A stretch of DNA of 64,000 bases, from positions 902,167-966,166 of the forward strand of contig CBDBQC010000004.1 of NCBI GenBank assembly GCA_965209205.1, given 5' to 3'. This DNA comes from Dehalococcoidia bacterium (lineage in GTDB: Bacteria > Chloroflexota > Dehalococcoidia > Bin125). The translations under genes were made by a program, and so were the position numbers. Shown in pieces: positions 1 to 56,165 of the stretch; within the stretch, counting starts at the first letter, position 1; each line of letters begins with the position of its first letter. The notes under the pieces are model-generated. The model ran no database searches. It saw only the letters and a program-made list of their open reading frames with translations, and was not told where the DNA came from.

Positions 1-263
1 CCGCGGCGCGTCACTTCGACCTTCTCGACCCGCGGCGAGTGGACGAGGAACTTGCGCTCGACGCCGACGCCGCCGGTGACGCGGCGGACGGTGAAGTTGC
101 TCGACGAGCCCTTGCGGCTGAGCGCGATGACGACGCCCTCGAAGACCTGCGTGCGCTCGCGGTCGCCCTCGACGATGCGCACGTGGACGCGCACCGTGTC
201 GCCGGGCTGGAAGTCTTCGATGCCGGGGTTGCGCTCGAGTTCGAGCAGGTCGGATCGGTCCAT
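1..263 (-). CDS. rplS: 50S ribosomal protein L19 (3' end runs off the window)
   Basis: Not in the ORF track because there is no in-window stop. Reverse-strand translation from the ATG at 263..261 gives [87 protein letters not shown]..., a classic L19 sequence. Confidence 0.9.
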
Positions 264-270
264 AGGGGGC

Positions 271-276
271 ATTGTA
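271..276 (-). promoter_or_regulatory. putative -10 box TACAAT, 7 nt upstream of the rplS ATG (leaderless-type geometry)
   Basis: Minus strand reads TACAAT-gccccct-ATG. No Shine-Dalgarno sequence fits in between. Confidence 0.35.
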
Positions 277-396
277 GGCACGGGGCCGGTCGCGGGGCGA
301 GATGCGGCGGTCGGGGTGCGTGTCGGCGGCGTCGTTGGGGGGTCGGGGGGCGCACGATGCCCCCAGCCGGCCGCTCTGCGCCACCGACCGAGCATG

Positions 397-405
397 TGGT
401 AGAAT
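397..405 (+). promoter_or_regulatory. extended -10-like element TGgTAGAAT
   Basis: Plus strand reads tgTGGTAGAATgcc. It is an AT-rich hexamer in otherwise very GC-rich DNA, about 235 nt upstream of the 640 ATG. Confidence 0.35.
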
Positions 406-511
406 GCCAGTGGAGCCGGGGGCGTGACCCCCCGACGCCAGCGGGCCGGTTCGCGGGTTTCCCCCTAGAGGCGCCGGCCCGCCGTTGCCACCCGATAACG
501 GGCGGCCCCAC

Positions 512-543
512 CAGCGCCCCCGACCGTAACGGCGGGGGCGCTG
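512..543 (+). other. perfect 11-bp GC stem hairpin in the long leader upstream of the DarT-like gene
   Basis: Arms CAGCGCCCCCG (512..522) and CGGGGGCGCTG (533..543) with a 10-nt loop. No T-run follows, so it is not a canonical terminator. Confidence 0.5.
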
Positions 544-639
544 CTGCGCCACGCGTCGCTGCCCGCGCACCAGTTGCCCGGACCCACCAGCGTGCACGAT
601 CCCCGAGAGTAGCCTGCCGACACGTCAGGAGGGGCTGGC

Positions 640-1467
640 ATGCCCGTGTGCGAGTTCGAAGCGGGGGCTTGGTACCGCAACGATCGATGCCGCTACCAGG
701 TCCTTGAGATCGACGACGATGTGTTGCTCGTCCGTCTCGACGATGGCTCGGAATGCTTGCTGGACGCTCGGGAGCAGGCAGCAGTCAGCCGGTTCGCGGC
801 GCACCCGTGGTGGTACGGCCGCCCTGGCCCCAGGCAGCGAGCAGCCGAGGAACTGCGCGATCGTGGAATCCAGCACCTCTATCACTTCACGGCGCTTGAG
901 AACCTTCGGGGCATTCGAGACGTGGGCGCGATCTGCTCGAAGGCGACACTCGAACGCCTGGACCGTTGGCCGGTCCCGGTTCCAGGAGGGGACGATGACT
1001 CCCAGTCACTCGACAAACAGAATGGCAACTGGCCCTTCGCATCGCTGAGCATTGCTTGGTACACACCACAGTTCTTCAAGAGGCTTTCCGAACGCCCACT
1101 CGTGAGCTTCTGCATCTCGCCCGAGGTCGCCGGCGCGGGGGGCGCTCGGATCTACGACACCAACGCGAATAGTGACGCCCGCAACCTGCTCCGCCACTTC
1201 GACGAGGCTCTGGACCGTCTCGATCTCGACCTCTTCACGCAGCGGCGCCACATGCCAGCGCAAGACTCGCGAGAATGGCGAGGCATCCAGGCGGAAGTGC
1301 TGATCGATGATCGCGTCCCCCTGGACTTCGTCGAACGGATCGTCGTCGATCGGCGAATTCCCCTGCCTGACGTGGAGCGCGTCTTCGGCGAGCGCTTCCC
1401 GATCGCAGTGGTGAACTTCAAGCAGTGGCGGTACGGCGATCTGCCGCAGCCGAATGATCCGCGTTAA
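640..1467 (+). CDS. DarT-like (DUF4433) ADP-ribosyltransferase domain protein with an ~85-aa N-terminal extension
   Basis: AGGAGG Shine-Dalgarno sequence lies 8 nt before the ATG. Motifs HLYHFTALENLRGI, SLSIAWYTPQFF, IYDTNANS and GIQAEVLIDDRVPLDFVERIVV match the DarT pattern (YHxT..NL..I ... QAExLV ... I..I.V). Confidence 0.7.
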   Translation: MPVCEFEAGAWYRNDRCRYQVLEIDDDVLLVRLDDGSECLLDAREQAAVSRFAAHPWWYGRPGPRQRAAEELRDRGIQHLYHFTALENLRGIRDVGAICSKATLERLDRWPVPVPGGDDDSQSLDKQNGNWPFASLSIAWYTPQFFKRLSERPLVSFCISPEVAGAGGARIYDTNANSDARNLLRHFDEALDRLDLDLFTQRRHMPAQDSREWRGIQAEVLIDDRVPLDFVERIVVDRRIPLPDVERVFGERFPIAVVNFKQWRYGDLPQPNDPR

Positions 1468-1550
1468 CGGCGCTCGGCGTCGTCTGTGAGCGAACGCTGC
1501 CCGCAGGGTACGGACGCAGCTAGACTCCTGCGACGATTGGAAACCCCCTC

Positions 1551-2366
1551 ATGATCAGCATCACTCGCCCGCTTCCCCTCGCCCTCCTGATCGGCCTCAC
1601 CGTTGGAATCGCGATCGGCGTCGCCGTGACGGCCATCGCCGGCGCGCAAGGGCCCACCGTGGCGGCGGACGTGCGGATCACGGCGCGGCTCCTGGAGAAC
1701 GGCAAGGTGGAGTTCGGACTCCAGCAGCGGGAGGGCACCGGCTGGGGCGAGATCATCCTGCCCCGCGTCAACAAGTTCCCCTACGCCACCGCGACCGTTG
1801 ATCGATGGCTCTACAGCTCGCCCGTGCCCGTGGCCGTCGCGGCGCCGCGCGCGTCGGCGCACGTGGGGCCGCCGCGGCCGCGGGGGTGGCTGCGCATCGC
1901 GGACGGGTCGATTCCGCACGTCCAGATCGTCGATTGGACCCTGGCCGGGACGGGGGAGTACGCCGCCGACGGGCGGGTCGGCTACGACTTTCCCGCCAGC
2001 CCGCAGTTGTTGTTGCGCTGCCTGACGTACTCCGACGGAAACCAGGCGCTCGCGGCCAGGTTCACCGCGGAGAGTGGCCATCCCTATCCAGGCTCGGCCG
2101 CGGGCACACACACCCTCAGCGCGCGCGTCGCGGGGGGCGAGACGAACTGGATCCGAGCGCTTGGCGGGGCTAGCATCTTCCCCAGCTACGCTCCGTGGTC
2201 CGATCTCGCGTTCCTCGACTGGTTGGCCATGAACTACGTGCGCAACGCGCACAACCCGATTCTGACCCTCGCCGCCCACGACGCGGATGGGAGGCTCTAC
2301 TTCGAGGGGACGTTCGACCTGACAGGCCTGCCCGCGGTGCTGGCGGACCTGCCGTGCTACGAGTGA
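1551..2366 (+). CDS. hypothetical membrane-anchored/secreted protein
   Basis: N-terminal hydrophobic helix PLPLALLIGLTVGIAIGVAVTAIAG. The composition looks natural (K, N, F, Y, W present), whereas the antisense ORF 1464..2432 is Arg-rich junk. Confidence 0.65.
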   Translation: MISITRPLPLALLIGLTVGIAIGVAVTAIAGAQGPTVAADVRITARLLENGKVEFGLQQREGTGWGEIILPRVNKFPYATATVDRWLYSSPVPVAVAAPRASAHVGPPRPRGWLRIADGSIPHVQIVDWTLAGTGEYAADGRVGYDFPASPQLLLRCLTYSDGNQALAARFTAESGHPYPGSAAGTHTLSARVAGGETNWIRALGGASIFPSYAPWSDLAFLDWLAMNYVRNAHNPILTLAAHDADGRLYFEGTFDLTGLPAVLADLPCYE

Positions 2367-2389
2367 CGGCCGACCGCCCCTTCTGTGCA

Positions 2390-2429
2390 CTGCCCCAGCA
2401 GCACGATCGTTGAGGCCCAGACGCGACAC
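2390..2429 (+). repeat. direct repeat copy 1 (ctgccccagcagcacgatcgttgaggcccagacgcgacac)
   Basis: About 34/39 identical to 2925..2963. The two copies bracket the 2449..2883 gene. Confidence 0.7.
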
Positions 2430-2436
2430 CATGCGC

Positions 2437-2442
2437 TAGACT
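2437..2442 (+). promoter_or_regulatory. putative -10 TAGACT, 6 nt before the ATG (leaderless-type)
   Basis: Sequence reads gcgcTAGACTgccccaATG. Confidence 0.35.
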
Positions 2443-2448
2443 GCCCCA

Positions 2449-2883
2449 ATGCCCCTCCAGCATCCGCACCCGCCCGGCCCAGCGCCGGGGGACGAGCCCG
2501 TGGCCGCCCTGGCGGATTGCCCGGTGTGCCAGATGATGGCCTACCACGCGGAGGCCGGCGACGCCGTGCAGGCCACGACGGCCGCGTTCACAGCCGCGCT
2601 AGCCGCCGCAGACCTCCCGGAGGACGATCCGGCGCGGCCCTATCTCGCGCACGTCGGCGTGTCGCTCACCAGCGCGATCGACCTGTGGGCCGAGATCGCT
2701 CCGTCGCTCATTGCCTTAGCCGTGCAGTCGCGCGGCGGCGATCCCGACGAGGCGGCGGAGCGCGCGCTGGAAGCCCGGGAGATCGGCATCGCCAAGGTCG
2801 AGCGGGAGCGGCGCGCTACCGCCCCGCCCGAAGCGGCGCCCCGCCCGAAGCGGCGCGCGATCTGGCGTCGCCGCGGGCGCTAG
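2449..2883 (+). CDS. hypothetical protein (Ala/Asp-rich with an Arg-rich C-terminal tail)
   Basis: 144-aa ORF with strong GC bias at the third codon position. No recognisable family motif (no macrodomain or NADAR signature seen). Confidence 0.55.
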   Translation: MPLQHPHPPGPAPGDEPVAALADCPVCQMMAYHAEAGDAVQATTAAFTAALAAADLPEDDPARPYLAHVGVSLTSAIDLWAEIAPSLIALAVQSRGGDPDEAAERALEAREIGIAKVERERRATAPPEAAPRPKRRAIWRRRGR

Positions 2884-2924
2884 GCCGTTCGCCCTACACC
2901 GTCCCCCTGCGCCCCTGCTGCCAA

Positions 2925-2963
2925 CTGGCCCAGCAGCACGATCGTCGCCCCCAGACGCGACAC
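2925..2963 (+). repeat. direct repeat copy 2 (ctggcccagcagcacgatcgtcgcccccagacgcgacac)
   Basis: See 2390..2429. It is followed by a degenerate gctag element instead of TAGACT. Confidence 0.7.
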
Positions 2964-3084
2964 GCCCCCGACCGCCTGCTAGCGTCCGGGGGCGCGTGTC
3001 GGAGTCGCCCCGCGCGCGGGGAGCGGCCACGTTTGTCTACCGGCTAGCGGATTGTACAACACTGCCGCACGCTGTAGCTCGCTC

Positions 3085-3789
3085 TCACACCCCCCGACGA
3101 CCCAGCAGGTCCGGGCGACGCACGGCCGTCCGATCTACCCGCTGCTGGCGGCGCCAGGCGTCGATGCGGGCGTGGTCGCCGCTGAGCAGGACGTCGGGGA
3201 CACGCCAGCCGCGGAAGTCGGCCGGACGGGTGTAGTGGGGGTACTCGAGCAGGCCGTCCTGGTGTGACTCCTCGACCAGCGACGCGGGGGAGCCCAGCGC
3301 GCCGGGCAGCAGGCGCACGATGGCCTCGACGAGAACCATGGCCGGGATCTCGCCGCCGCTGAGCACGTAGTCGCCGATCGAGATCTCGTCGTCGGCGAGG
3401 TGGGCGCGGACGCGCTCGTCGATGCCCTCGTAGCGGGCGGCCATGAGGATGAGGCGGGGCTCGGCGGCGAGTTCGCGGGCGAGGGCCTGCGAGAAAGGGC
3501 GGCCCTGCGGGGTGAGCAGGACGGCGCGGCCGGGCGGCGCGACATCGGCGCGCAACGACTCGACGGCGGCGAACCAGGGCTCGGGGCGCATGACCATGCC
3601 CGCGCCGCCGCCGTAGGGCGCGTCGTCGACGCTGCGGTGCTTGCCGGTCGTCCAGTCGCGCAGGTCGTGGCTGTGGATGCCGATGAGGCCGGCCTCGCGG
3701 GCGCGGCGCACGATGCCGGTGTTGAGCGGCGCGTCGAAGACCTCCGGGAAGATCGAGAGGATGTCGATGCGGGCGGGGGCGGCGGTCAT
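3085..3789 (-). CDS. trmD: tRNA (guanine37-N1)-methyltransferase
   Basis: [30 protein letters not shown]... and [13 protein letters not shown] are typical TrmD motifs. Confidence 0.95.
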
Positions 3790-3802
3790 GACGGGGGGCC
3801 GC

Positions 3803-4315
3803 TCATGACTGGGCGGCGGGCGCGGGCGGGTGCTCGGTGACGCCGGCCAGCAGCTCGACGGCGTGCGCCAGGACGGGCAGGACGGCGCCCAGGTTCTCGC
3901 GCACGCCGCGCTCTGAGCCGGGCAGGTTGAGGATCAGGGTCGTGCCGCTGGCCCCGGCAAGGCCGCGGCTGAGGGCGGCCTTGGGCGTGTGACGCAGGCC
4001 CTCGGCGCGCATGACCTCGGCCAGCCCGGGGATCTCGCGCTCGATGACGGGACGCGTCGCCTCGGGCGTGACGTCGCGCGGGCCGAGGCCGGTGCCGCCC
4101 GTCGTGACGATCAGGTTGACGCCCGGCGCGGCGACCCATGCGCGCAGTTGCGCGGCGATGCGATCGGCCTGATCGGGCACGATCGCTCTTTCCACGATCT
4201 TGGCCCCCAGCGGCGCCAGCAGCTCGGCGATCGCGGGGCCCGACGTGTCCTCGCGCTGGCCGCGGGCGCCGCGGTCGCTGACGGTGAGAATGGCGACGCG
4301 GAGGCTTATCGCCAT
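3803..4315 (-). CDS. molybdenum cofactor biosynthesis protein (MogA/MoaB family)
   Basis: An internal ATG at 4315 gives [29 protein letters not shown]...[14 protein letters not shown]. The longer track ORF (to 4729) has an implausible N-terminus. Confidence 0.85.
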
Positions 4316-4409
4316 CTGGCGGGGCCCTTCAACCGACGCCGCGGGGGGGCGCAATGGGGCGAACAATGGGGGCGAAAAAGATTTTTCCTGCGAAGTCTTG
4401 ACGAAGGTG

Positions 4410-4438
4410 TTGACAAGAGTGGGGGATAGTGGCACGAT
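4410..4438 (+). promoter_or_regulatory. candidate dcw/mraZ promoter (TTGACA-17 nt-CACGAT)
   Basis: Perfect -35 hexamer at 4410..4415 in an AT-richer patch (gaaaaagatttttc lies upstream). The -10 is weak. Confidence 0.35.
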
Positions 4439-4464
4439 GTGTCCTGTTGTGGGGAGAAGTGGGG
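4419..4464 (+). promoter_or_regulatory. phased GTGGGG direct repeats, candidate MraZ operator
   Basis: GTGGGG at 4419, GTGGCA at 4429, GTGGGG at 4449 and GTGGGG at 4459, all on a 10-bp register just upstream of mraZ. Confidence 0.5.
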
Positions 4465-4540
4465 ACCTTGGTCGGAGGTCACCACAGGGGAATCGAACTC
4501 CTCCTCCCTCAGGAAAGCGACCGGAAACGGATGTCGCGCG

Positions 4541-4978
4541 TTGGCCTTCCGAGGCACCTTCGCTCACTCCCTGGACAATCGCGGCCGGATGGCCGTGCCG
4601 GCGCGCTATCGCGCGGCGTTCGCGGAGGGTGGCGTCGTCACGCCCGGGGCGGACGGCTGTCTGGAACTCTATACCGCCGCGGAGTTCGACCGCACGGCGG
4701 AGGACCTGACCAGGGAGTCGGCGAGCCAACCGCGTGGCCGCCGCCTCCGCCGCGTCCTGTACGGCAGCTCGACGGAGGTCGAGCTGGACGGGCAGGGGCG
4801 GATCTTGCTGCCGGCCCGCTTTCGCGAGCGGGCGCAGTTGACGGGGCAGGCCGTCCTGCTGGGCCGTCGCGAGTGTCTGGAGATCTGGAACCCCGAGGCC
4901 TGGGAGCGCGAGTCGGCGCTGGTCGAGAGCGAGTTCCCGGCCGACCTCGAGGCCAGCGGGGGGGAGACGCCGTCATGA
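4541..4978 (+). CDS. mraZ: transcriptional regulator MraZ
   Basis: In-frame TTG at 4541 gives (M)AFRGTFAHSLDNRGRMAVPARYR, the canonical MraZ N-terminus. The ATG at 4439 in the track would place the operator repeats inside the CDS. Confidence 0.85.
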   Translation: MAFRGTFAHSLDNRGRMAVPARYRAAFAEGGVVTPGADGCLELYTAAEFDRTAEDLTRESASQPRGRRLRRVLYGSSTEVELDGQGRILLPARFRERAQLTGQAVLLGRRECLEIWNPEAWERESALVESEFPADLEASGGETPS

Positions 4979-5903
4979 GCGCCCCGCCGCACAACCCACT
5001 GCGAAGTGACCCCGCGCCGCACCAGCCGGTGATGCGCGACGAAGCGCTGGCCTACCTGAACGTGCGGCCCGGCGGACGCTACATCGATTGCACGACCGGG
5101 GCCGGCGGCCACAGCGCCGCGATCCTGGACGCCTCGGCGCCGGACGGGCGCCTGCTCGCCAACGACGCCGACCCGGCCGCTCTGGCGGTCGCGCGGGAGC
5201 GCTTGGCCGGCTACGGCGACCGGGTGCGCTTCACGGAGGGCTACTTCGACGAGATTACGGGCAGCACCGGCGCGGCGGGCATCGTCCCGGCCGACGGCGT
5301 GCTGCTGGACCTGGGCGTGTCGAGCATGCAGCTCGAGACGCCCGAGCGGGGCTTCTCCTTCCGGGAGCGCGGCCCCCTGGACATGCGCATGTCGCCGGCG
5401 ACGGAACTGACCGCCGCGGCGATTGTGAATGAATACGAGGAGGCCGATCTGGCCGACCTCCTCTACCGCCTTGGCGATGAGTGGCGATCGCGCCGCATCG
5501 CACGCCAGATCGTGGCTCGCCGACCGTTGGCGACCACAACGGATCTTGCCAAAGCCGTCGAGCAGGCTGCGGGGAAAGGCCGCAAAGCCAGTACTTCTAG
5601 TAGAGTTCACCCCGCCACCAAAACCTTTTTGGCCCTTCGCATGGCGGTCAACCAGGAGCTTCGGCGCCTGGGCGACTTCCTTGCCCTGGCCCGCAGCCTG
5701 CTCGGCTTTGGATCCCGCCTCGTCATCATCAGCTTCCACTCGCTGGAAGATCGACTGGTCAAGCAATTTCTCCGCGACGCGTCGCAGGGCGACGCGCCCG
5801 CGTTCCGGGTGCTGACCCGCAAGGGGTGCGTCCCAGCGCCGCCGAAGTGGAGCGCAACCCTCGCAGCCGCAGCGCGCGGCTGCGAGCGGCCGAGGCGCGT
5901 TAG
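4975..5903 (+). CDS. rsmH: 16S rRNA m4C1402 methyltransferase RsmH, with an apparent -1 frameshift near 5821..5826
   Basis: The ATG overlaps the mraZ stop (ATGA). HQPVMRDEALAYL, TTGAGGHS, DLGVSSMQL and FHSLEDR are present. The conserved C-terminus VRPSAAEVERNPRSRSARLRAAEAR-stop is in the next frame after the run aagggg. Confidence 0.85.
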
Positions 5904-6464: not shown

Positions 6465-8354
6465 ATGGAGCGGGCAGGGCTCAGTCCCTGGCGACTGCGT
6501 CTCGTGGCGACGATTTTCGTCGTGTTCGGGGTGCTGCTCTGCCTGCGGCTGGTACACGTCCAGATCCTCGATCACCCGCAGTTCGAGGCCGAGGCCCACG
6601 ACGCGCACTTCTGGGCGCAGGAGGTGGCCGGGCCGCGCGGCGCGATCCTCGATCGCAACGGGCTGCCGCTGGTGACGGGGGTCGACACGTTCGAGATCCA
6701 CGTCGACCGCGAGGCCTGGGAACTGGAGCCGCGCAACGAGCGTCAGGCGGTGCAGGAGTTGTCGCGGCTGCTGGGCGTCGATCAGCAAACGATCCGCGCG
6801 GTGGTGGGGACGGGCGGGGGCCGCGACATCCTGCTGGCGCTGAACGTGCCGTTCGCGCTGGGCGAGACGATCACGGCGGCGGGGCTGCCGGGAGTGAAAG
6901 TGACGCCGGCCAGCCTGCGCCGGTACGCGGAGGGCGGGCTGGCGAGCCAACTGCTGGGCTTCGTGGGCCGCGACAACCAGGGACTCTCGGGTGTGGAGTT
7001 CGACTTCGACACGATTCTGGCCGGCAGCCCGGGGCTGCTGGTCTTCGAGCGCGACAGCATCGGCAACCCGATCCCGTTCGGGGCGCAGGCGCAAACCGAG
7101 ACCGAGTCCGGGGCCGACCTGGTGCTGACGATCGACAAGGGCCTGCAGCGCATCGCCGAGCAGCACCTGGCGCAGGCGCTGGCCGACACCGGCGCGCGCG
7201 GCGGCTCGATCCTGATGATGGACCCCAACACGGGCGACATCCTGGCGCTGGCGGCCTCGCCGACGTTCAACGTCAAGGAGTTGAACCTGGCCGACCCGGG
7301 CACCGACTTCTCGCTGATCCGCAACCGCGTCGTCACCGACATGTACGAGCCGGGCTCGGTGTTCAAGGTCTTCACGATGGCGGGCGCGATCGACGCGGGC
7401 GTGGTGTCGCCCTACACGACGTTCATCGATACCGGCGCGATCGTCGTGGGGGCGCGGACGATCCGCAACTTCGACCTCTCGTTCCACGGCGAGCAGACGA
7501 TGACGCAGGTCTTGCAGCGCTCGCTGAACACGGGCACGGCCTGGGTGGCGACGGAGATGGGCGCGTACCGCTTCTACGACTACGTGACCGCGTTCGGCTT
7601 CGGCGACGTGACGGGCTCGGGCATGGCCGGGGAGTCGCCGGGCATCCTCAAGCAGCCCGGCAACCTCTTCTGGTCGGAGGTCGACCTGGCGACCAACTCG
7701 TTCGGGCAGGGCATCTCCGTGACGCCGCTGCAGATCGTGCGGGCCTACGCCGCGATCGCGAACGGGGGCGAGCTGCTGCGGCCGCGCATCCTGCGCTCGG
7801 TGATTACGAAGGACGGCGTGCAGGACTTCCCGGTCGTCAGCGACGGGCGGGTGATCAGCGAAGAGACCGCGGCCAGCGTGCGCCGCATGATGCAGGCGGT
7901 GGTCGACGGCGTCAGCGGGCACCCGGCGCAGACGCCGGGCTGGCCGGTGGCCGGCAAGTCGGGCACCTCCGACGTCGTCGAGAACGGCGTCTACCTGGAG
8001 GACGAATCGATCGCGTCGTTCGCGGGCTTCGCCCCAGTCGACGACCCGCGCGTCGTGATCCTGGTGAAGCTCGACCGGCCGCAGGGGGAGATCTTCGGGG
8101 GCGTCGTCGCGGCGCCGGTGTTCTCGGCGCTGCTGGCCGACGTGCTGCCGGCGCTGGGCGTGCATCCGTCGTCGTACGTGGCGCAGCCCGACCTCTTCGA
8201 CGGCGCGCCGGGCGAGACGGCGCCGGTGGCGGACGCGACCGCGTCGGGCGCCGACGCGGCGGCGGACGGCGTCGAGGTCGCGGAGCCGCTGACGGAGGCG
8301 GATCGCGATACGGAGACGGGCGGCGCGGAGCCGGAGGGAGCGGGAGCGGGATGA
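6465..8354 (+). CDS. ftsI: penicillin-binding transpeptidase FtsI/PBP2 class
   Basis: GGAG Shine-Dalgarno sequence and an N-terminal TM helix. Motifs GSVFK (SxxK), SLN (SxN) and KSGT (KTG-like) are present. Confidence 0.9.
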   Translation: MERAGLSPWRLRLVATIFVVFGVLLCLRLVHVQILDHPQFEAEAHDAHFWAQEVAGPRGAILDRNGLPLVTGVDTFEIHVDREAWELEPRNERQAVQELSRLLGVDQQTIRAVVGTGGGRDILLALNVPFALGETITAAGLPGVKVTPASLRRYAEGGLASQLLGFVGRDNQGLSGVEFDFDTILAGSPGLLVFERDSIGNPIPFGAQAQTETESGADLVLTIDKGLQRIAEQHLAQALADTGARGGSILMMDPNTGDILALAASPTFNVKELNLADPGTDFSLIRNRVVTDMYEPGSVFKVFTMAGAIDAGVVSPYTTFIDTGAIVVGARTIRNFDLSFHGEQTMTQVLQRSLNTGTAWVATEMGAYRFYDYVTAFGFGDVTGSGMAGESPGILKQPGNLFWSEVDLATNSFGQGISVTPLQIVRAYAAIANGGELLRPRILRSVITKDGVQDFPVVSDGRVISEETAASVRRMMQAVVDGVSGHPAQTPGWPVAGKSGTSDVVENGVYLEDESIASFAGFAPVDDPRVVILVKLDRPQGEIFGGVVAAPVFSALLADVLPALGVHPSSYVAQPDLFDGAPGETAPVADATASGADAAADGVEVAEPLTEADRDTETGGAEPEGAGAG

Positions 8355-9823
8355 TCGATCCGCGCCAACTCGCCGAGGCCCTGGGGCCGCTGCTGCTGAA
8401 CCCGGACGCGCCGCGCGAGGCGGCGCCGTTCAACGACATCGTGATCGACTCGCGCAAGGTGACGCCGGGGGCGCTGTTCGTGGCGCTGCGCGGCGAGCAG
8501 ACGGACGGGCATCGCTTCCTGGCCGACGCCGTGGCGCGCGGCGCGACGGGGCTGCTGACGCGCGTGGCCCCGCCCGATCTGCCGGCGCGGGCCGGGGTCT
8601 TCCTGGTCGAGGACACGCTGGCCGCCTTGCAGCAGGCGGCGAAGCGCTGGCGCGCGTCGCGCACGGCGCGCGTGATCGGCATCACCGGCAGCGTGGGCAA
8701 GACGACGACGCGCGAGGCCGCGGCGACCGTGCTGCGCTCGCGCTACGAGACGCTCGAGAGCCCGCGCAACTTCAACAGCGACATTGGCCTGCCGCTGGCG
8801 CTGCTGGGGCTGTCGCCGTCGCACGAGTGGGCGGTCATCGAGATGGGGCCCTACGACCGCTGCGAGATGGAGCTGCTGGTCGACGTGGGCGCGCCCGACA
8901 TGGGCATCGTGACGAACGTGGGCCCGACGCACCTCGAGCGCTTCGGCTCGATCGAGGCGACGGAGCAGATCAAGGGGCTGCTGCCGGCCTCGCTCCCGCC
9001 CGACGGCGTGGCGATCCTCAACGGCGACGACGCCCGCGTGCGGCGCATGCGCGCCCGGACCGCGGCGCGGACGCTGCTCTTCGGCCAGGGCGACGACGTG
9101 GATGTGCGGGCGACCGACATCGTCTCGCACGGGCTGGACGGGATCGCGTTCACGCTGCACCTGCCCGACGCGCCGCAGCCGATCGCGGTGCGCACGCCGC
9201 TGGCCGGGGCGCACCACGCGATGACGGCGCTGGCCGCGGCGGCCGTCGCGCACGTGGCCGGGCTCTCGCCGGGCGACACGGCCGAGGCGCTGTCGCGGTT
9301 GCACGCGGGCAGCCGGCTCAAGCCGCGCCGCGGCTACTCGGGCGCCACGATCCTCGACGACACCTACAACGCCGCCCCGCTCTCGATGCGGGCGGCGCTC
9401 GACCTGCTGGCCGGGATGGCCGGGCATCGCATCGCGGTGCTGGGCGACATGCTGGAGCTGGGCCAGGAGGAGGCCGCGTCGCACCGGGCGGTGGGCGAGT
9501 ACGCCGTGGGCCGCTGCGACCGGCTGATCGCGATCGGGCGGCGGGCGCGCGGCATCACCGACGGCGCCTGGGACGCCGGGCATCGCCACATTCAGTGGTT
9601 CGCCGACAAGAACGAAGCCACCGACCTGCTGCGCAACGAAGTCGGCGCCGACGACGTTGTGCTGGTCAAGGCGTCGCACGGGCTGGCGCTGGAGACGGTG
9701 GTGGCGGGGTTGATCACGCCGCCCGGACCGGCGCAGCGCCCGGCCGCGGCGAACGGCCCCTCGACTGGCCCATCGGATGGCCCATCGACTGGCCCATCGA
9801 CTGGCGAGGAGCGGCCGGCATGA
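8351..9823 (+). CDS. murF: UDP-MurNAc-tripeptide--D-Ala-D-Ala ligase
   Basis: ATGA overlap with the ftsI stop. IVIDSRKVTPGALFVALRGEQTDGHRF, GITGSVGKTTT and DDTYNAAPLSM are present. Confidence 0.9.
   Translation: MIDPRQLAEALGPLLLNPDAPREAAPFNDIVIDSRKVTPGALFVALRGEQTDGHRFLADAVARGATGLLTRVAPPDLPARAGVFLVEDTLAALQQAAKRWRASRTARVIGITGSVGKTTTREAAATVLRSRYETLESPRNFNSDIGLPLALLGLSPSHEWAVIEMGPYDRCEMELLVDVGAPDMGIVTNVGPTHLERFGSIEATEQIKGLLPASLPPDGVAILNGDDARVRRMRARTAARTLLFGQGDDVDVRATDIVSHGLDGIAFTLHLPDAPQPIAVRTPLAGAHHAMTALAAAAVAHVAGLSPGDTAEALSRLHAGSRLKPRRGYSGATILDDTYNAAPLSMRAALDLLAGMAGHRIAVLGDMLELGQEEAASHRAVGEYAVGRCDRLIAIGRRARGITDGAWDAGHRHIQWFADKNEATDLLRNEVGADDVVLVKASHGLALETVVAGLITPPGPAQRPAAANGPSTGPSDGPSTGPSTGEERPA
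9755..9802 (+). repeat. four tandem 12-nt units (ggcccMtcgRMt) encoding (GPSTGPSD)-type repeats at the murF 3' end
   Basis: Units read ggcccctcgact ggcccatcggat ggcccatcgact ggcccatcgact. They are in frame (4 codons each). Confidence 0.8.
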
Positions 9824-10782
9824 CGACGTTCTCGCTGGCGACCGCCGGGATCGCGTTCGTGATCGCGCTGGCGATCGGGCGGCCGCTGCTGGCCACGCTG
9901 CGGCGCCGCGCGATCGGCAAGGCGATCAGCGACGAGGGCCCCGACTCGCATCACGTCAAGGCCGGCACGCCCACCATGGGCGGGCTGATCATCTTCGCCA
10001 CGGTGGCCGTGCTGACGCTGGCCACCAACATCATCGACCGCGAGTCGATCCTGCTGCCGCTGGTGGCGATCGTCGTGCTGGGCGGCATCGGCCTGATCGA
10101 CGACCTGGGCACGCTGCAGGGGCGCGTGCAGTGGGGGCTCAGCTGGCGGCTCAAGGTCGTGCTGCTGCTGCTGTTCGCGCTGGGCGCGGCGCTGACGCTG
10201 TTCTACGGGCTCGACACGAAGAGCATCAACGTGCCCTGGGCGGGCCAGTACTCGCTGGGCGAGTTCTACATCCCCATCGCGGTGCTGGTGATCCTGGCAA
10301 CCACGACGTCGGTCGCGATCACGGACGGGATGGACGCGCTGGCCGGCGGCACCCTGGCCATCGCCTTCGCCGCCTACGGCGTGATCGCGGTGGGGCAGGA
10401 GCAGGACTTCCTGGTGCGCTTCGCCTTCACGACGGTGGGGGCGACGCTGGGCTTCCTCTGGTACAACGCGCACCCGGCGCAGATCTTCATGGGCGACACG
10501 GGGGCGCTGGCGCTGGGCGGCACGCTGGCGATCGTGGCGCTGATGACGGGCCATTGGCTGCTGCTGCCGATCATCGGGATCGTCTTCGTGCTCGAGGCGT
10601 GCTCGGACATCATCCAGATCGGCTACTTCAAGCTGACGGGCGGCCGGCGCGTCCTGCGCATGGCGCCGCTGCACAACCACTTCGAACTGCTCGGCTGGTC
10701 CGAGCCCCAAGTCGTGACGCGGGCGTGGCTGCTGGGGATCGCGGGGGCGATCCTCGGCGTCGCGCTGGCCCTGCAGGTCTGA
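9820..10782 (+). CDS. mraY: phospho-N-acetylmuramoyl-pentapeptide transferase
   Basis: ATGA overlap with the murF stop. HHVKAGTPTMGGLIIF, DDL..L and MGDTGALALGG are present. Confidence 0.95.
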   Translation: MTTFSLATAGIAFVIALAIGRPLLATLRRRAIGKAISDEGPDSHHVKAGTPTMGGLIIFATVAVLTLATNIIDRESILLPLVAIVVLGGIGLIDDLGTLQGRVQWGLSWRLKVVLLLLFALGAALTLFYGLDTKSINVPWAGQYSLGEFYIPIAVLVILATTTSVAITDGMDALAGGTLAIAFAAYGVIAVGQEQDFLVRFAFTTVGATLGFLWYNAHPAQIFMGDTGALALGGTLAIVALMTGHWLLLPIIGIVFVLEACSDIIQIGYFKLTGGRRVLRMAPLHNHFELLGWSEPQVVTRAWLLGIAGAILGVALALQV

Positions 10783-29020: not shown

Positions 29021-29280
29021 ACCCCATCGGCATCGCGGCGGTCATCCTGCAGCTGTTCTTCTTCATCGTGCTGGCGCGCGTGATCATGAGTTGGATCCCG
29101 CTGGTCACCAACAAGCCGCTCGACTACAACAACCCGATCGTGAAGTTCCTGGTCGACGTGACGGAGCCGCTGCTCGCGCCGATGCGCCGCTTCCTGACGA
29201 TCGGGATGATCGATCTGTCGCCGATGGTGCTGCTGATTGGGCTCAGCATCCTGCAGAGCATCCTGGTGCGCAGCGCCTAG
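29017..29280 (+). CDS. yggT: YggT family membrane protein
   Basis: ATGA overlap with proC. 87 aa, two TM helices, RVIMSWIP motif. Confidence 0.85.
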   Translation: MNPIGIAAVILQLFFFIVLARVIMSWIPLVTNKPLDYNNPIVKFLVDVTEPLLAPMRRFLTIGMIDLSPMVLLIGLSILQSILVRSA

Positions 29281-29301
29281 CGGCCCGACCTCACCCCCTG
29301 T

Positions 29302-29332
29302 CCCCCTCTCCATCTGGACGATGGAGAGGGGG
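29302..29332 (+). repeat. 13-bp perfect-stem palindromic element after yggT
   Basis: Arms ccccctctccatc (29302..29314) and gatggagaggggg (29320..29332) around the loop tggac. No T-run follows. It sits at the left edge of the R-M island. Confidence 0.6.
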
Positions 29333-29453
29333 AACGTGGACGCGGCGCCCCTGGCCCGATGATCGCGGCGCCCTGCGGTACGATGCCCCGGTACCCCGCA
29401 CGCGCGGGCCACAGCCGTACCCCTCCGGAAGCCACGACGGGTGTGAGCGATCC

Positions 29454-32400
29454 ATGCCAGACGACTTCTTCACGAGCCCCATCCTCAACTCTCCCTACGA
29501 GTACCCGGCACAACACTGGGAGCTGGAATCGGGCCAGCCGACGAACCAGATCGTCGGCGATCGCCGGATCGCGGAGTTCATCACACCCATCCCGAAGCCA
29601 AGGAAGCGCCGATCGAAGGGGGAGCAGGCCGGGCTGGCCCTGGGCGACTCGAAGGGCCTCTCCACCGCGGAGCAGCAATACGAAGAGACGGCGTTCTTCA
29701 TCAACGACCTGCGCCGCCAGGTCGACCGCTGGCGCGAGTTGCGCAACCCCGCCGACTGGAGGGTCACGCCCGAGACGGCGCGCCTGCTCCAGCACTGGCG
29801 GAGCGATCAGTTCAGCGGCTACAGGCCCTTCTTCTGCCAGGTCGAGGCTGCCGAGACGATCATCTGGCTGAGCGAAGTCGCGCCCAAGCTCGGCGGCGTC
29901 GGCCGCCGCTTCCTCGATCACCTCGACACGGCCAACGAGGAGGCCAACCCTGGGCTCTCCCGCCTCGCGCTCAAGCTGGCGACCGGCGCCGGCAAGACGA
30001 CCGTCATGGCGATGATCATCGCCTGGCAGACGATCAACGCCGTACGCCGCCCCAGCAGCAGCCGCTTCACGCGCGGCTTCCTCGTGACGACGCCGGGCAT
30101 CACGATCAAGGACCGCCTGCGCGTCCTGCAACCGAACGACCCCGACGCCTACTACGCCAGCCGGGAACTCGTGCCCCGCGACATGCTCGACGACCTGCAC
30201 AAGGCCCGCATCGTCATCACCAACTACCACGCCTTCAAGCCGCGCGAGACGCTCGAACTCTCGCGGGGCGGCCGCGCCCTCTTGCAGGGCCGGGGCCCCT
30301 CGATCGCCACCCAGGAGACCGACGGCCAGATGCTCCAGCGGGTCATGCCCGAACTCATGGGCATGCGCAACATCCTCGCCATCAACGACGAGGCGCACCA
30401 CTGCTACCGCGCGAAGCCCGGCGAGGAAGACGAGGAGGGCACCCTCAAGGGGGACGACCGCAAGGAGGCCGAGAAGAATCGCGAGGCCGCTCGGATCTGG
30501 ATCAAGGGCCTGGAGGCCGTGCAGCGCAAGCTGGGCCTGCAGCGTGTCGCCGACCTCTCCGCGACGCCGTTCTTCCTGCGTGGCTCCGGCTACGCCGAGG
30601 GCACGCTGTTCCCCTGGACGATGAGCGACTTCTCCCTCATGGACGCCATCGAGTGCGGGATCGTCAAGCTGCCGCGCGTCCCCGTCGCCGACAACATCCC
30701 GGGGGCGGACGTGCCGATCTTCCGCAACCTCTGGGAGAACATCCGCCCCAAGATGCCGAAGAAGGGGCGCGGCAAGGGCGGCCCCCTCGATCCGCTGAAA
30801 CTCCCCATGCAGTTGGAGACCGCCCTGCAGGTGCTCTACGGCCACTACGACGAGACGGCCCGACTCTGGGAGCAGGAGGGCGTCGCCGTCCCGCCCTGCT
30901 TCATCGTCGTCTGCAACAACACCGCGACCTCGAAGCTGGTCTACGACTACATCTCGGGCTTCGAGCGCACCAACGACGCCGGCCTCACGACCGTCGAGAA
31001 CGGGCGGCTGCCCCGCTTCCGCAACTTCGAGGACGGGCAGCGGCTCCCGCTCCCGCGCACCCTGCTGATCGACAGCGAGCAGCTCGAGTCCGGCGACGCC
31101 CTCGACCCCAACTTCCGCAGGATGGCCGGCGACGAGATCGAGCGCTTCCGCCGCGAGCGCGTCCAGCGCACCGGCCAGCAGCACGGCGCCGAGAGCATCA
31201 CCGACCAGGAACTGCTGCGCGAGGTGATGAACACCGTCGGCAAGCCCGGGCAGCTCGGCCAGGACGTCCGCTGCGTCGTCTCCGTCTCCATGCTCACCGA
31301 GGGCTGGGATGCCAACACCGTCACCCACGTGCTCGGCGTGCGCGCCTTCGGCACGCAACTGCTCTGCGAGCAGGTGATCGGCCGATCCCTGCGCCGGCAG
31401 TCCTACGACCTCAACGAGGAGAACCTCTTCAACGTCGAGTACGCCGACGTCCTCGGCATCCCCTTCGACTTCGCGGCCAAGCCCGTGGTGTCCAAGCCGC
31501 AGCCCCCGCGCGAGGTGGTGCAGGTCGAGGCCGTCAGCCCCGAGCGCGATCACCTGGAGATCCGCTTCCCCCGCGTCGAGGGCTACCGGGTGGAACTGCC
31601 GGAGGAACGGCTCGCCGCCAAGTTCACCCCCGACTCCACTCTTGTACTCACCCCCGACGACACCGGTCCGACCATCACCAGCAACGCGGGGATCATCGGC
31701 GAGGAGGTCGACCTCACGCTGGTCGACACGGGAGAACTGCGGCAGTCGACCCTGCTCTTCCACCTCACCAAGCGGCTGATCGAGACGAAGTGGCGCGACC
31801 CCGGCGGCGACCCCAAGTTGCACCTCTTCGGGCAGCTCAAGCGCATCACGCGCGAATGGCTGGAGAGCCACCTCGTCTGCAAGGGCGGCACCTACCCGGC
31901 CCAACTGATGTACCAGGAACTCGCCGACACGGCCTGCGAGCGCATCACCGGCGGCATCACCGCGTACTTCGCGGACGAGCGCCCGATCAAGGCCGTGCTC
32001 GATCCCTACAACCCCACGGGCTCGACGCAGCACGTGAGGTTCACCACCTCCGTCCCGACGCGCTGGCAGACCAGCCCGCGGCACTGCCACCTCAACTGGG
32101 CGATCTGCGACAGCGACTGGGAGGCCGAGTTCTGCCGCGTCCTGGAGTCCCATCCCAAGGTGCGCGCCTACGTCAAGAACCACAACCTCGGCTTCACCGC
32201 GCCCTACCAGTCGGGCGGCGAGGCGCGGCGCTACGTACCCGACTTCATCGTGCTGGTCGATGACGGCCGCGGCCCCGACGACCCCCTGCACCTGATCGTC
32301 GAGATCAAGGGCTACCGCGGCGAGGACGCCAAGGAGAAGAAGCTCACCATGGACACCTACTGGGTCCCGGGCGTCAACAACCTGGGGACCTACGGCCGCT

Positions 32401-32528
32401 GGGCCTTCGCGGAGTTCACCGACGTCTGGGCCATCGGCGCCGACTTCGAGGCGCAGGTGGCCGACTTCAACCGCATGATCGAGGGCGCGCTGGCGCCGGA
32501 GTCCGCCGACGTCGCAGGAGGGGCGTAA
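29454..32528 (+). CDS. res: type III-like restriction enzyme, Res subunit (SF2 helicase + PD-(D/E)xK nuclease)
   Basis: MPDDFFTSPILNSPYEYP N-terminus. Walker A LKLATGAGKTTVMA, DEAH box INDEAHHCY, helicase C motifs (SMLTEGWDANTV, QVIGRSLRR) and a C-terminal nuclease YVPDFIVLV...LIVEIKGY are present. Confidence 0.85.
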   Translation: MPDDFFTSPILNSPYEYPAQHWELESGQPTNQIVGDRRIAEFITPIPKPRKRRSKGEQAGLALGDSKGLSTAEQQYEETAFFINDLRRQVDRWRELRNPADWRVTPETARLLQHWRSDQFSGYRPFFCQVEAAETIIWLSEVAPKLGGVGRRFLDHLDTANEEANPGLSRLALKLATGAGKTTVMAMIIAWQTINAVRRPSSSRFTRGFLVTTPGITIKDRLRVLQPNDPDAYYASRELVPRDMLDDLHKARIVITNYHAFKPRETLELSRGGRALLQGRGPSIATQETDGQMLQRVMPELMGMRNILAINDEAHHCYRAKPGEEDEEGTLKGDDRKEAEKNREAARIWIKGLEAVQRKLGLQRVADLSATPFFLRGSGYAEGTLFPWTMSDFSLMDAIECGIVKLPRVPVADNIPGADVPIFRNLWENIRPKMPKKGRGKGGPLDPLKLPMQLETALQVLYGHYDETARLWEQEGVAVPPCFIVVCNNTATSKLVYDYISGFERTNDAGLTTVENGRLPRFRNFEDGQRLPLPRTLLIDSEQLESGDALDPNFRRMAGDEIERFRRERVQRTGQQHGAESITDQELLREVMNTVGKPGQLGQDVRCVVSVSMLTEGWDANTVTHVLGVRAFGTQLLCEQVIGRSLRRQSYDLNEENLFNVEYADVLGIPFDFAAKPVVSKPQPPREVVQVEAVSPERDHLEIRFPRVEGYRVELPEERLAAKFTPDSTLVLTPDDTGPTITSNAGIIGEEVDLTLVDTGELRQSTLLFHLTKRLIETKWRDPGGDPKLHLFGQLKRITREWLESHLVCKGGTYPAQLMYQELADTACERITGGITAYFADERPIKAVLDPYNPTGSTQHVRFTTSVPTRWQTSPRHCHLNWAICDSDWEAEFCRVLESHPKVRAYVKNHNLGFTAPYQSGGEARRYVPDFIVLVDDGRGPDDPLHLIVEIKGYRGEDAKEKKLTMDTYWVPGVNNLGTYGRWAFAEFTDVWAIGADFEAQVADFNRMIEGALAPESADVAGGA

Positions 32529-49503: not shown

Positions 49504-49637
49504 GGCTCCTCCCTCGGTCCATGGTAGGGGGCGCGGCCATCGCGGACGGTGGGGTCGCCACAGCGGACGAGGCCGTTCATTATGAGTACTCGGGGGCTGA
49601 GTGCCGACGTCTGGTCGGCAGGGAGGAGTTGCGGATC

Positions 49638-52600: not shown

Positions 52601-52886
52601 CGACACAGCGCGCAGCCGCCTAGAGAAGCTCTACGAATACCGCACAACTGCCGCACAAGAACGTCTTGACGCCGATCGGGAGGTCCTGGACAGGATGGAG
52701 GCATCGCCAGAACCCGCACACCAGCAAGCCGTTCCGATGCGGCAGTTCCACGTGCGCCGAGCGGAGGAAGAGATAGGGCAGGTCGGTGAAGATCGACGTC
52801 TCGCGCTCGACGATCTCCTACAGTCCCGCAACCCGAGCATCGAGTACGACTTGCTCAACGTCGCACGCATCCTGGTCGCCGATTAG
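49638..52886 (+). CDS. RapA/HepA-like SNF2-family ATPase (RNA polymerase-associated type)
   Basis: GGGAGGAG Shine-Dalgarno sequence before the GTG at 49638 (the track ORF opens at 49521). Two Tudor/SH3-like N-terminal modules, LMPHQV, LLCDEVGLGKTIEA, VVDEAHHAR, LTATPMQ, ATEAGGEGRNLQ and EQRIGRVDRIGQ are present. Sampled 60-nt blocks give about 53-57% GC, against roughly 70%+ in the flanks. Confidence 0.85.
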   Translation: MQNAEIVPGARVRMVRLEQAGHVDRIEGRRAFVVLDNGDRLQVAVDSDGLERDVFSVGTQVSRTDGTTGVVIGDVRAADVPIWQVAWADGSSTQVPERGLRRAEIVDPVARMRAGMLDSAKAFNLRSVAADLWARHRSEELVSLSHARFDLMPHQVSVLHRVIENWPHRFLLCDEVGLGKTIEAAMVLKELRSRGSAKRVLILTPANIQRQWQRELKTKFNETFRIFNRDTLRHLDNQGVPNPWQTEQSVITSQSFAAHNPTRRDEISAVPWDLIVVDEAHHARRRREGKRTTQTNLYRLVRNLTAEPGLGRRSVLFLTATPMQLQRHELFSLVELLQPTLFPSEEDFEQHVGQRAELTRLIAEIEERAPEGDKLEAYIQEASPWLNRSSRSELHSADELVDTLRVTHPLGEVMLRNRRAAVGGFAQRQASQWHVDLTPKEQLVQEQMDSILRDGYRAASEGSGGQANAVGFLMVIYQKLAASSSRALLRSLEGRRERLLASEAADIEESEAEESLTDDVTASEVTRKLPPGVEREAERIGEVIDLLREIPIDSKAQRLLDGLRELSAVEPDIKVLIFTEFRETQQMLRELLAAEEWGCEVFHGQLDPAEKDQAVERFRDGVGRQALVATEAGGEGRNLQFAHILVNYDLPWNPMRVEQRIGRVDRIGQEKPIQIFNFRVRDTIEERILEVLDERIGIFKDTVGGLEPILGDAEDLIRAALRKGAEERDEEFEKVGRRYESEVQRARERARQADSELADINVDLSAYREEIDKLLGKASATTVTQRDVDRLLYNLLTAANARVTAPGDGIRFPEGQRSVEFRPPFTEEHRDLLDGQERRLVCFDPRISVDSETVEYFGFGHPIVDALVRSVTRDDSKGSAAIRCLARDAAPALRDGWQFNWRLRLTAAEPREWIFPVFVDDDGGADPEIAALLLKASRRFERERLASAPHPVIDSQRLDSAFHSAQASVLKRQGELANYYSEQAEADYDTARSRLEKLYEYRTTAAQERLDADREVLDRMEASPEPAHQQAVPMRQFHVRRAEEEIGQVGEDRRLALDDLLQSRNPSIEYDLLNVARILVAD

Positions 52887-55396: not shown

Positions 55397-55765
55397 CTAC
55401 GTCGGGCCCGCTCCGCCGCGTCCCTCCGCCTCCGCCAGCAGTGCGCGCAGCAGAGGCATGAGCTCGGGGATGTCGCGGCTGACAATGTCCCAGACCTTCT
55501 GCGGGTGGATGCTGCCGTAGCCGTGCACGACGCGGTTTCGCGTCGCCGTGACATTGGCCCACGGGATCTCAGGGTGAGCCTTCTGGATGCCGCCGGGGAC
55601 ATTATTCGCGGCCTCTCCGAGCACCGTGATGTTCCAGAGGACCGCATCATAGGTAAGCGGCGCAGCGACAAGTTGGTTACGGCTGAGACCGGCCGTGTAG
55701 TCCTCGATCCGCACGCAGCAGTCGATCATGTCGCGCACATAGATGTCCCATCGCCGTTCAGACAT
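55397..55765 (-). CDS. hepT: HepT-like (DUF86) RNase toxin
   Basis: The ATG at 55765 gives MSERRWDIYVRDMID... with the Rx4HxY motif (RNRVVHGY). Confidence 0.8.
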   Translation of the reverse strand: MSERRWDIYVRDMIDCCVRIEDYTAGLSRNQLVAAPLTYDAVLWNITVLGEAANNVPGGIQKAHPEIPWANVTATRNRVVHGYGSIHPQKVWDIVSRDIPELMPLLRALLAEAEGRGGAGPT

Positions 55766-56048
55766 AGACGGCATCCGCCTTGATGTAGGGGCGCAATTCA
55801 ACCCGCACGTCGGCGTCCACCACCAAGTCCACGGAGTGGCCGAACAGCCCCTCCAGGTGCTGGAGCACTTCACCGTACCCCGCCCAGCCGCGGGCGCCGG
55901 GCAGGGAGATGAGGATGTCGATATCGCTGCCGGGACCCGCCTCGTCGCGCGCGGTGGATCCGAAGAGCGCCAAGTCGGCCACGCCGAAGCGGTCGGCCAG
56001 CACCGGCTTGTGCTCGCGCAGCAGCGCCAACGCCTCGTCCCTGCGCAT
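55758..56048 (-). CDS. mntA: MntA-like nucleotidyltransferase antitoxin
   Basis: MRRDEALALLREHKPVLADRFGVADLALFGSTARDEAGPGSDIDILI (GS...DxD motif). It overlaps the hepT start by 8 nt. Confidence 0.8.
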   Translation of the reverse strand: MRRDEALALLREHKPVLADRFGVADLALFGSTARDEAGPGSDIDILISLPGARGWAGYGEVLQHLEGLFGHSVDLVVDADVRVELRPYIKADAVYV

Positions 56049-56165
56049 CGCCTGCCCGGCCCTTCCGTCCTCCGCGCACCAAGTGTACCGCGCGTGCGGC
56101 GTGGGGCGGGATCGAGCGGTCGGGGAGTCGGGGGCGGGGCGCGTGACCCTCCCCCCGCCCGACAC

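Follow-up and report, generated by a model that had tools for sequence, protein, structure and literature searches.

To our knowledge, every DarT ADP-ribosyltransferase (ART) characterised so far comes with a partner enzyme, either DarG or a NADAR protein, that removes its mark, and annotation tools recognise DarT systems by this pairing of toxin and eraser. How a DarT gene standing alone could be tolerated is the question raised by a 64,000-nucleotide stretch of the genome of a Dehalococcoidia bacterium (GenBank assembly GCA_965209205.1, contig CBDBQC010000004.1, positions 902,167-966,166; hereafter the window), in which three plus-strand genes, gene 1 (640-1467), gene 2 (1551-2366) and gene 3 (2449-2883), lie between the minus-strand genes rplS and trmD. 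A first-pass annotation had described gene 1 as a DarT-like enzyme lacking a DarG partner and had proposed a neutraliser of a new type among the two downstream genes; the open reading frames (ORFs) lie where it had placed them. We put the probability at about 0.5 that gene 1 is a stand-alone, mobile, DarT1-like toxin or defence gene that carries an added SH3-like domain, is controlled from within or in trans and sits in an insertion hotspot. Related loci are designated L001 and so on.

Gene 1 and its predicted DarT1-type active site

The Shine-Dalgarno sequence of gene 1, AGGAGG, occupies positions 627-632 of the plus strand, and CACGTCAGGAG...CATG is unchanged across five aligned loci. The encoded protein matches the Pfam DarT profile PF14487 (DUF4433) over residues 81-238 with E 1.8e-13 and 51.1 bits, against a gathering threshold of 22.5, and the PADLOC DarT profile with E 4e-12; it scores 37 bits with the NCBIfam equivalog toxin_DarT (NF048013), for which the cut-off is 150. 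Judged by these profiles, the protein falls within the DarT superfamily and outside the canonical toxin_DarT equivalog. Searching with the full-length protein returned ten similar clusters among 5.8 billion proteins, PF14487 being present in all ten. An AF2 model built on the family alignment (pLDDT 82.8, pTM 0.80) was compared with the PDB by Foldseek, and the best eight matches were all DarT proteins, with probability 1.00 and E 2e-7 to 6e-6; template-modelling (TM) scores, normalised to the target, were 0.59-0.66, and 0.36 for the 376-residue DarTG fusion chain 7omu. The matches comprise DarT2 of Thermosipho, Mycobacterium tuberculosis and Thermus as well as DarT1 of Escherichia coli C7, and identity to characterised DarTs is 17-19%. 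The best PDB sequence match of the family profile was likewise DarT1 (8baq, E 8.7e-6), with the motifs aligned.

The four DarT motifs that had been quoted for gene 1 are all present in its translation, and the catalytic residues are intact. H82, within HFT, aligns with the NAD-binding histidine in the HFT of DarT1; S137 aligns with S63 of DarT1, which stands where the triad has its tyrosine, in both pairwise and profile alignments; N175 aligns with the base-coordinating N104 of DarT1, whose DarT2 counterpart is His119; and E219, in the QAEVL motif singled out in the first-pass annotation as holding the candidate catalytic glutamate, aligns with the catalytic glutamates E152 of DarT1 and E160 of the Taq enzyme. 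The roles of DarT1 residues E152, N104, S63 and R52 are those described in PMC11543638. All ten family members have S137, N175 and E219, and at least 90% have H82. Read from these alignments, the active site is of the DarT1 type, with a serine at the 'Y' position and a base-coordinating asparagine.

The likeness to DarT1 of the DarTG1 (DarT-NADAR) system of E. coli C7 (8baq) thus extends from the common ART fold (Foldseek E 3e-7) to the HFT motif, an L-S-x-S strand whose serine occupies the 'Y' of H-Y-E, the Y-x-T-N-A motif with its base-coordinating asparagine and the Q-A-E motif with its catalytic glutamate. Unlike DarT1, to which it is about 18% identical, gene 1 carries an added N-terminal SH3-like domain of about 78 residues; unlike DarTG1, it has no adjacent NADAR gene and its host belongs to an uncultured Chloroflexota lineage. 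DarT2 of DarTG2 (Thermus and M. tuberculosis; 7omv-7omy, 7yk3) shares the fold (E 2e-7 to 6e-6, TM about 0.6-0.66) and the catalytic glutamate, E160 of DarT2 corresponding to E219, whereas the macrodomain partner DarG is missing beside gene 1, the base-coordinating residue is asparagine rather than histidine and the triad position holds serine rather than tyrosine. Because asparagine and serine replace the DarT2 histidine and tyrosine, thymidine specificity is not expected for gene 1.

The extra N-terminal module noted at first pass proved to be SH3-like and to extend about 78 residues beyond the DarT profile. Residues ~10-55 form a small SH3/Tudor/KOW-like barrel according to Foldseek, a linker helix follows at 63-74, and the DarT-family ART domain spans residues ~79-258; a stand-alone copy of the N-terminal domain gives a weak SH3_15 match. 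An exhaustive profile search collected 1513 DarT-like protein clusters, and among the best 150 of these 1513, for which architectures were determined, the combination of barrel and DarT is confined to the gene 1 family, other relatives being fused differently (for example to four S1 domains, to a Zn-ribbon or to C-terminal extensions of about 130 residues). No names are on record for the nearest DarT-like clusters. Ribosomal protein L19, encoded next door by rplS, is also an SH3-like barrel; the idea that the N-terminal domain of gene 1 is a copy of it was rejected, as the two sequences are dissimilar. Gene 1 peptides scanned against GTDB genomes found no match, and a search for relatives of gene 1 yielded none on phages and, on plasmids, one remote DUF4433 protein (Parabacteroides).

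A DarT subfamily without a linked antidote

As the first-pass annotation had claimed, no DarG or NADAR partner lies beside gene 1, and the same holds in all 11 related loci, where no macrodomain, NADAR or ARH gene adjoins DarT. The search for hydrolases covered the 64 kb of the window and the neighbourhoods of the related loci. No macrodomain (DarG), NADAR or ARH gene was found among the window ORFs scanned (64 by PADLOC, for which the result comprises the 25 best families, and about 30 of the 64 by Pfam), and genes 2 and 3 gave no Macro or NADAR match in Pfam, PADLOC or NCBIfam.

The subfamily is solitary in five or six unrelated contexts that share neither a constant neighbour nor a hydrolase. 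Outside the rplS-trmD locus it occurs in L003/4/5, L006, L001, L008 and L091. Restriction or defence genes accompany DarT in some of these places. The copy in L006 is an intact ORF in an island with integrases, GmrSD and HNH genes; near the L001 copy are genes for Vsr, a DNA methylase and a UvrD/PD-(D/E)XK protein, and the neighbours in L003 include SmaI-like and methyltransferase genes. In L001 and L008, DarT lies downstream of protease genes. These two loci (L001 6314-7839; L008 3339-6419) hold the most distant relatives, which are 49-56% identical, and upstream of them stands either a pair encoding an 86-aa, weakly DUF5678-like and a 150-aa retropepsin-like protein or a gene for an 806-aa trypsin-like protein, so that the distant relatives may have a link to proteases.

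The DarT gene is exchanged horizontally and kept under selection

Pairwise dN/dS values of 0.2-0.45 show that gene 1 is under purifying selection. Resolved by domain, the ratio is 0.28 for the N-terminal barrel and 0.38 for the ART domain, and the barrel is accordingly at least as constrained as the catalytic part. The gene is compositionally foreign: the GC content around it is 63%, compared with 72-75% in the flanks, and GC at third codon positions (GC3) is 0.76 for DarT, 0.89-0.90 for genes 2 and 3 and 0.92-0.95 for the flanks. Between the window and L002, dS reaches 0.69 for DarT as against 0.14-0.15 for trmD and mog. The DarT allele of the window is 85% identical to that of L090 and 79% identical to that of L003, which sits at another locus, yet 64% identical to those of the syntenic L002, L007 and L009. 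Weaker codon bias may account for part of the excess in dS, but it does not explain this incongruence with the flanks, which shows that the DarT gene is mobile and has been exchanged horizontally.

Insertions of differing content in the rplS-trmD spacer

The window opens with the 5' part of rplS (ribosomal protein L19; 1-263, minus strand), which runs off its edge, matches Pfam Ribosomal_L19 with E 1e-29 and is 95-97% identical to rplS of L002, L009 and L097. On the same strand, trmD occupies 3085-3789 (Pfam tRNA_m1G_MT, E 9e-62). In about 20 Chloroflexota/Dehalococcoidia loci the gap between the two genes typically measures ~70-220 nt, which bears out the assumption of the first-pass annotation that they are normally adjacent. 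A TrmD scan, in which the related sequences came from Chloroflexota/Dehalococcoidia metagenome-assembled genomes, identified 'Chloroflexi bacterium TK10-74A' as the closest GTDB representative (TrmD 79%), and here the gap is 140 nt. Since a short gap is the norm in TK10-74A and in the ~20 Chloroflexota loci, the separation of trmD from rplS in the window is real and unusual.

The two genes are indeed split by 2.8 kb, as had been proposed, whereas the boundaries given for the insertion, 264-3084, do not hold: the segment without a counterpart in the closest relative, L097, is 559-3084. By blastn, window 368-558 corresponds to L097 2987-2796 and window 3085-4992 to L097 2772-868, and in L097 only 23 nt lie between the upstream element, a small RNA described below, and the stop codon of trmD.

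The flanking genes of L002, L007, L009 and L097 are 82-97% identical to those of the window, while the content of the spacer differs from genome to genome. The window carries DarT with genes 2 and 3; L002 and L007 have DarT and gene 2; L009 has DarT alone; and L090 has DarT with other small ORFs. In L093, DarT is interrupted by an insertion sequence (IS) after residue ~71. The spacer of L094 is without cargo, as is that of L097 downstream of the small RNA, an IS lying upstream of the RNA; L098 contains a zinc-finger-repeat ORF, and L100 a DUF5677-like gene and a homologue of gene 2, without DarT. The same three genes are therefore not a core feature of the clade. IS5-like transposase genes were located in the spacers of L093 (4075-4365) and L097 (3076-3850), one of them truncating DarT after residue ~71. 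In L021, from another Dehalococcoidia genome, the spacer contains 3.5 kb of other inserted DNA (6690-10180), with a DNA-methyltransferase-like ORF and a 544-aa TnpB-like ORF, and because of these ORFs the spacer can be said to have been struck by mobile DNA repeatedly. The rplS-trmD spacer is thus a variable insertion site in a narrow, Dehalococcoidia-affiliated lineage, and in the window 2.5 kb of cargo has built up directly after the small RNA through three or more separate events.

A GC-rich inverted repeat, GACACGCCCCCG...CGGGGGCGCGTGTC, lies at window 2958-3000, about 90-130 nt past the stop codon of trmD; it is kept in L094 and doubled in L090. It may represent either the terminator of trmD or a former leader of rplS from which that gene has since been separated. 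A scan for consensus promoters and terminators gave nothing in the 72% GC DNA of the window.

Genes 2 and 3 are passengers

Gene 2 (1551-2366, plus strand) encodes a membrane-anchored, beta-rich protein, and the transmembrane anchor seen at first pass is supported by a helix predicted at residues 11-30, near the N-terminus. Its homologues form 47 clusters, all from Chloroflexi and none annotated. The AF2 model shows the N-terminal transmembrane helix, a small beta unit, a disordered linker and a confidently predicted beta-rich domain, and the part beyond the helix is presumably extracytoplasmic. Compared with the PDB, this model gave no match below E 0.1, and none to a hydrolase fold or to anything NADAR-like. 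No match for gene 2 or gene 3 was found in Pfam, PADLOC, NCBIfam or PHROGs, and a PDB sequence search was also empty. The absence of a recognisable hydrolase motif from both genes, remarked on at first pass, therefore extends to profile searches and, for gene 2, to a structure search. Gene 2 evolves near-neutrally (dN/dS ~0.8) and behaves as independent cargo: a homologue sits in the rplS-trmD spacer of L100 without DarT, and DarT is found without gene 2 in L009, L003/4/5, L001, L006 and L008.

Gene 3 (2449-2883, plus strand) fits its earlier description and is an ORFan, matching only itself among 5.8 billion proteins, although its composition looks coding (GC at codon positions 1, 2 and 3 of 0.80/0.59/0.89). 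It lies in a segment of ~535 bp between 36-nt direct repeats on the plus strand, the left copy, CCCAGCAGCACGATCGT..CCCAGACGCGACAC, at 2394-2429 and the right copy at 2929-2963; L002, which is without gene 3, has one copy of the repeat. Gene 3 is consequently a later, separate insertion. Since gene 3 sits between its own repeats, and DarT and gene 2 each occur without the other, what had been described as a three-gene insertion is a composite of at least three events, and the difference between a GC3 of 0.76 in DarT and 0.89-0.90 in genes 2 and 3 also points to separate histories. Genes 2 and 3 are passengers unrelated to DarT, which is independent of both.

A structured small RNA upstream of DarT

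Between rplS and gene 1, the plus strand carries two features overlooked at first pass, an extended -10 promoter-like motif, TGTGGTAGAAT (395-405), followed by a structured small RNA of ~139 nt (410-548), which we call type A. The general form of the motif, TGnTAnnnT, keeps a constant distance from the RNA in all copies, of which there are at least 13, while its inner bases vary (-10 variants TAGAAT, TAAGAT, TACAAT, TAGCAT, TAAAGT, TACGGT and TATAGT), and from this pattern we infer that it functions as a promoter. The predicted fold of the RNA consists of a four-way junction (P1-P4) and, after it, a terminator-like GC hairpin of 10 bp at ~513-542; the folding energy is -89.6 kcal/mol (z = -3.3). 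In the consensus structure over 13 copies, 96% of cells are paired and four pairs show double changes, whereas the central arm varies between copies in length and sequence. The terminal helix (helix 5) contains nine G-U and zero A-C cells, which fixes the strand that is transcribed.

A covariance model, R1, scores 118 bits at 410-548, finds one copy in the 64 kb and matches only in this lineage. Rfam 15 had no match at E<=1 in window 1-5000, and at the gathering threshold only one to a tRNA elsewhere in the window; the best match at E<=10 was aspS RNA, with 16.5 versus 42.5 bits and on the wrong strand, and ARAGORN found nothing in the region of the small RNA. A metagenome-wide scan for the RNA pattern yielded 80 loci from 104 matching stretches, none of which the covariance model confirmed, and all 80 are for that reason regarded as chance matches.

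Every type A copy is in the rplS-trmD spacer, whether DarT is there or not, while type B copies occur at another locus, singly or in tandem. There, in L003/4/5, a 1135-bp segment combines one type B RNA with DarT in divergent orientation; a 13-nt imperfect direct repeat bounds the segment, which is missing from the otherwise 95-98% identical L095/L096. L099 has both RNA copies, with three lipoprotein genes replacing DarT. In L007 the promoter and the 5' two-thirds of the RNA are deleted and DarT is intact. Altogether, DarT occurs without the small RNA in L001, L006, L008 and L091, and the RNA without DarT in L094, L095, L096, L097, L098 and L099. RNA-mRNA duplex prediction for the small RNA and the 5' region of DarT gave complementarity within the range of shuffled controls. 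The RNA is thus a real and probably new element, with flanks in which cargo gathers; it may be tied functionally to DarT, but the data do not require this.

An ORF of ~48 codons (MPxxDDREWxxLLRYGERRARELGIRPxDVxRLxxEYRAE..GKG..) lies between rplS and the RNA promoter, on the strand of the RNA, in L090 (277-426), L094, L097 and L098; only its C-terminal part is present in L002, it is absent from window 264-409, and it has no Pfam match. We considered it as a small antitoxin and rejected it, as it is missing from the window and L009 and does not track DarT.

Weighing the explanations

The explanation that we favour, a solitary DarT1-like gene with its own means of control, implies an active enzyme that would use NAD+ to ADP-ribosylate a nucleic-acid base; our best guess for the target, made because the active-site signature is DarT1-like, would be a guanine-type exocyclic amine on single-stranded DNA. 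Gene 1 would then act as a stand-alone toxin or abortive-infection-type effector, its restraint being built in and not the work of an adjacent gene. The conserved N-terminal barrel could tether or autoinhibit the enzyme, the GC hairpin of the upstream RNA could hold expression low, and convergent transcription from trmD is a third candidate source of restraint. The closest parallel to the first of these is CapRel SJ46 (PMC9712102), likewise a mobile, accessory toxin domain joined to a conserved extra domain and lacking a separate antitoxin; CapRel differs in belonging to another enzyme class, the extra domain of gene 1 is N-terminal and SH3-like, and both autoinhibition and a phage trigger are hypothetical here. 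Several points weigh against this explanation. Autoinhibition of gene 1 by its N-terminal domain is proposed by analogy only. The loop equivalent to DarT1 R52/D54 aligns poorly and has low pLDDT. The IS-disrupted copy in L093 means that DarT is dispensable there, and the gene might be decaying in part of the clade. A NADAR or macrodomain enzyme may also be encoded in trans elsewhere in the genome, beyond the scope of 64 kb.

The last point leads to the main rival, which we consider plausible if unlikely: gene 1 would be half of an ordinary DarT1-NADAR or DarT-macrodomain pair that has been split, the modification being reversed in trans by a hydrolase encoded elsewhere. Its plausibility comes from YbiA-type NADARs, which are unlinked to DarT and also remove guanine-ADP-ribose (PMC11543638, PMC11125620), and it gains from the DarT1-like signature of the active site and from the size of the contig, at least 1 Mb, of which the analysis covered 64 kb. 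It has to contend with the lack of any such gene next to DarT in 11 loci and five or six contexts, or among the window ORFs scanned; moreover, a gene moving alone between genomes would often land where no antidote exists. That the ~139-nt RNA is instead the partner of DarT, whether as antitoxin, as regulator or as a terminator-based switch for read-through into DarT, the two forming a mobile module, appears rather improbable to us. All six DarT copies at the rplS locus lie 90-100 nt downstream of a type A RNA (five intact, that of L007 truncated), type B RNA and DarT are present together in the 1135-bp segment of L003/4/5, and the RNA has a conserved promoter motif, helices that are 96% paired and a strand-specific G-U pattern, with a strong hairpin ending it just ahead of the DarT leader. 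The order of promoter, structured RNA, hairpin and toxin gene in the window, L002, L009 and L090 recalls type III (ToxIN-like) toxin-antitoxin systems, but here the RNA is a single unit of ~139 nt rather than an array of short repeats, gene 1 encodes an ART rather than an endoribonuclease, and the linkage is non-obligatory both ways and divergent at the second locus. RNA without DarT in L094-L099, DarT without RNA in L001, L006, L008 and L091, the mostly deleted RNA beside an intact DarT in L007 and a complementarity to the DarT 5' region not beyond shuffled controls all speak against a partnership, and as other cargo adjoins the RNA in L098 and L099, its flanks may simply be insertion hotspots. 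We hold it unlikely that the small RNA gates or neutralises the SH3-DarT protein in what would be the first RNA-controlled DarT system, or else that the SH3-like domain makes this the first DarT that is a fused sensor and toxin.

A neutraliser would be superfluous if gene 1 were not self-toxic, either because its target is a non-lethal RNA, small molecule or protein or because it is inactive in vivo. The solitary state of DarT in every context, relatives fused to RNA-binding S1 domains, a toxin_DarT score of 37 rather than 150 bits and an identity of 17-19% to characterised DarTs would all suit such a view. Set against it are the catalytic asparagine and glutamate and NAD-binding motifs, invariant in ten members (the histidine in at least 90%), and the purifying selection; all DarTs characterised to date are toxic when their hydrolase is missing (PMC5179494, PMC11543638), and mobility, incongruence and disruption by an IS fit an accessory conflict gene, so that we regard a harmless gene 1 as improbable. 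The proposal of the first-pass annotation, that genes 1-3 belong to a single module with a new type of DarT neutraliser encoded by gene 2 or gene 3, has been largely refuted and retains very little probability. The three genes are co-oriented and tightly spaced, and in the window, L002 and L007 DarT is followed by gene 2, yet gene 2 occurs without DarT in L100 and DarT mostly occurs without gene 2; gene 2 is membrane-anchored and beta-rich, has no hydrolase fold and shows a dN/dS of ~0.8; gene 3, without homologues and confined to this genome, lies in its own repeat-flanked segment; and the GC3 of DarT is unlike that of either.

Other features of the window

At a distance from the rplS-trmD locus, a 1121-aa ORF with helicase-like motifs recognised by eye (49521-52886, plus strand) coincides with a stretch of ~61% GC (49.5-52.9 kb), compared with ~72%, which may be a further acquired island. 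Two minus-strand ORFs, 55397-55873 and 55758-56360, encode a HepT-like ribonuclease and an MNT-type nucleotidyltransferase, a HepT/MntA-type toxin-antitoxin pair. Applied to the 64 window ORFs, PADLOC reported a type III methyltransferase match with E = 0 as well as PDC-S09 and mad2; its output is not resolved by ORF, and candidates for the methyltransferase match are the ORFs at 29091-32528 and 32531-35422. These matches point to a type III restriction-modification system in the window, together with further defence-like genes.

Implications for the DarT family

DarT-type enzymes also circulate as single genes that carry an SH3-like domain and have no linked eraser. The exhaustive search found more than 1500 DarT-like protein clusters, several of those sampled bearing other fusions. 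If the enzyme is active, its restraint would have to lie in the protein itself or in its expression, or else generic NADAR or macrodomain enzymes would provide a background immunity, and either route would call for a different way of searching for toxins and defence genes that ADP-ribosylate DNA. The locus also offers a candidate new family of small RNAs that gathers adjacent cargo and presents a ribosomal operon spacer as an insertion hotspot. The candidate small RNA and the manner in which a solitary DarT is tolerated are what we consider most worth following.

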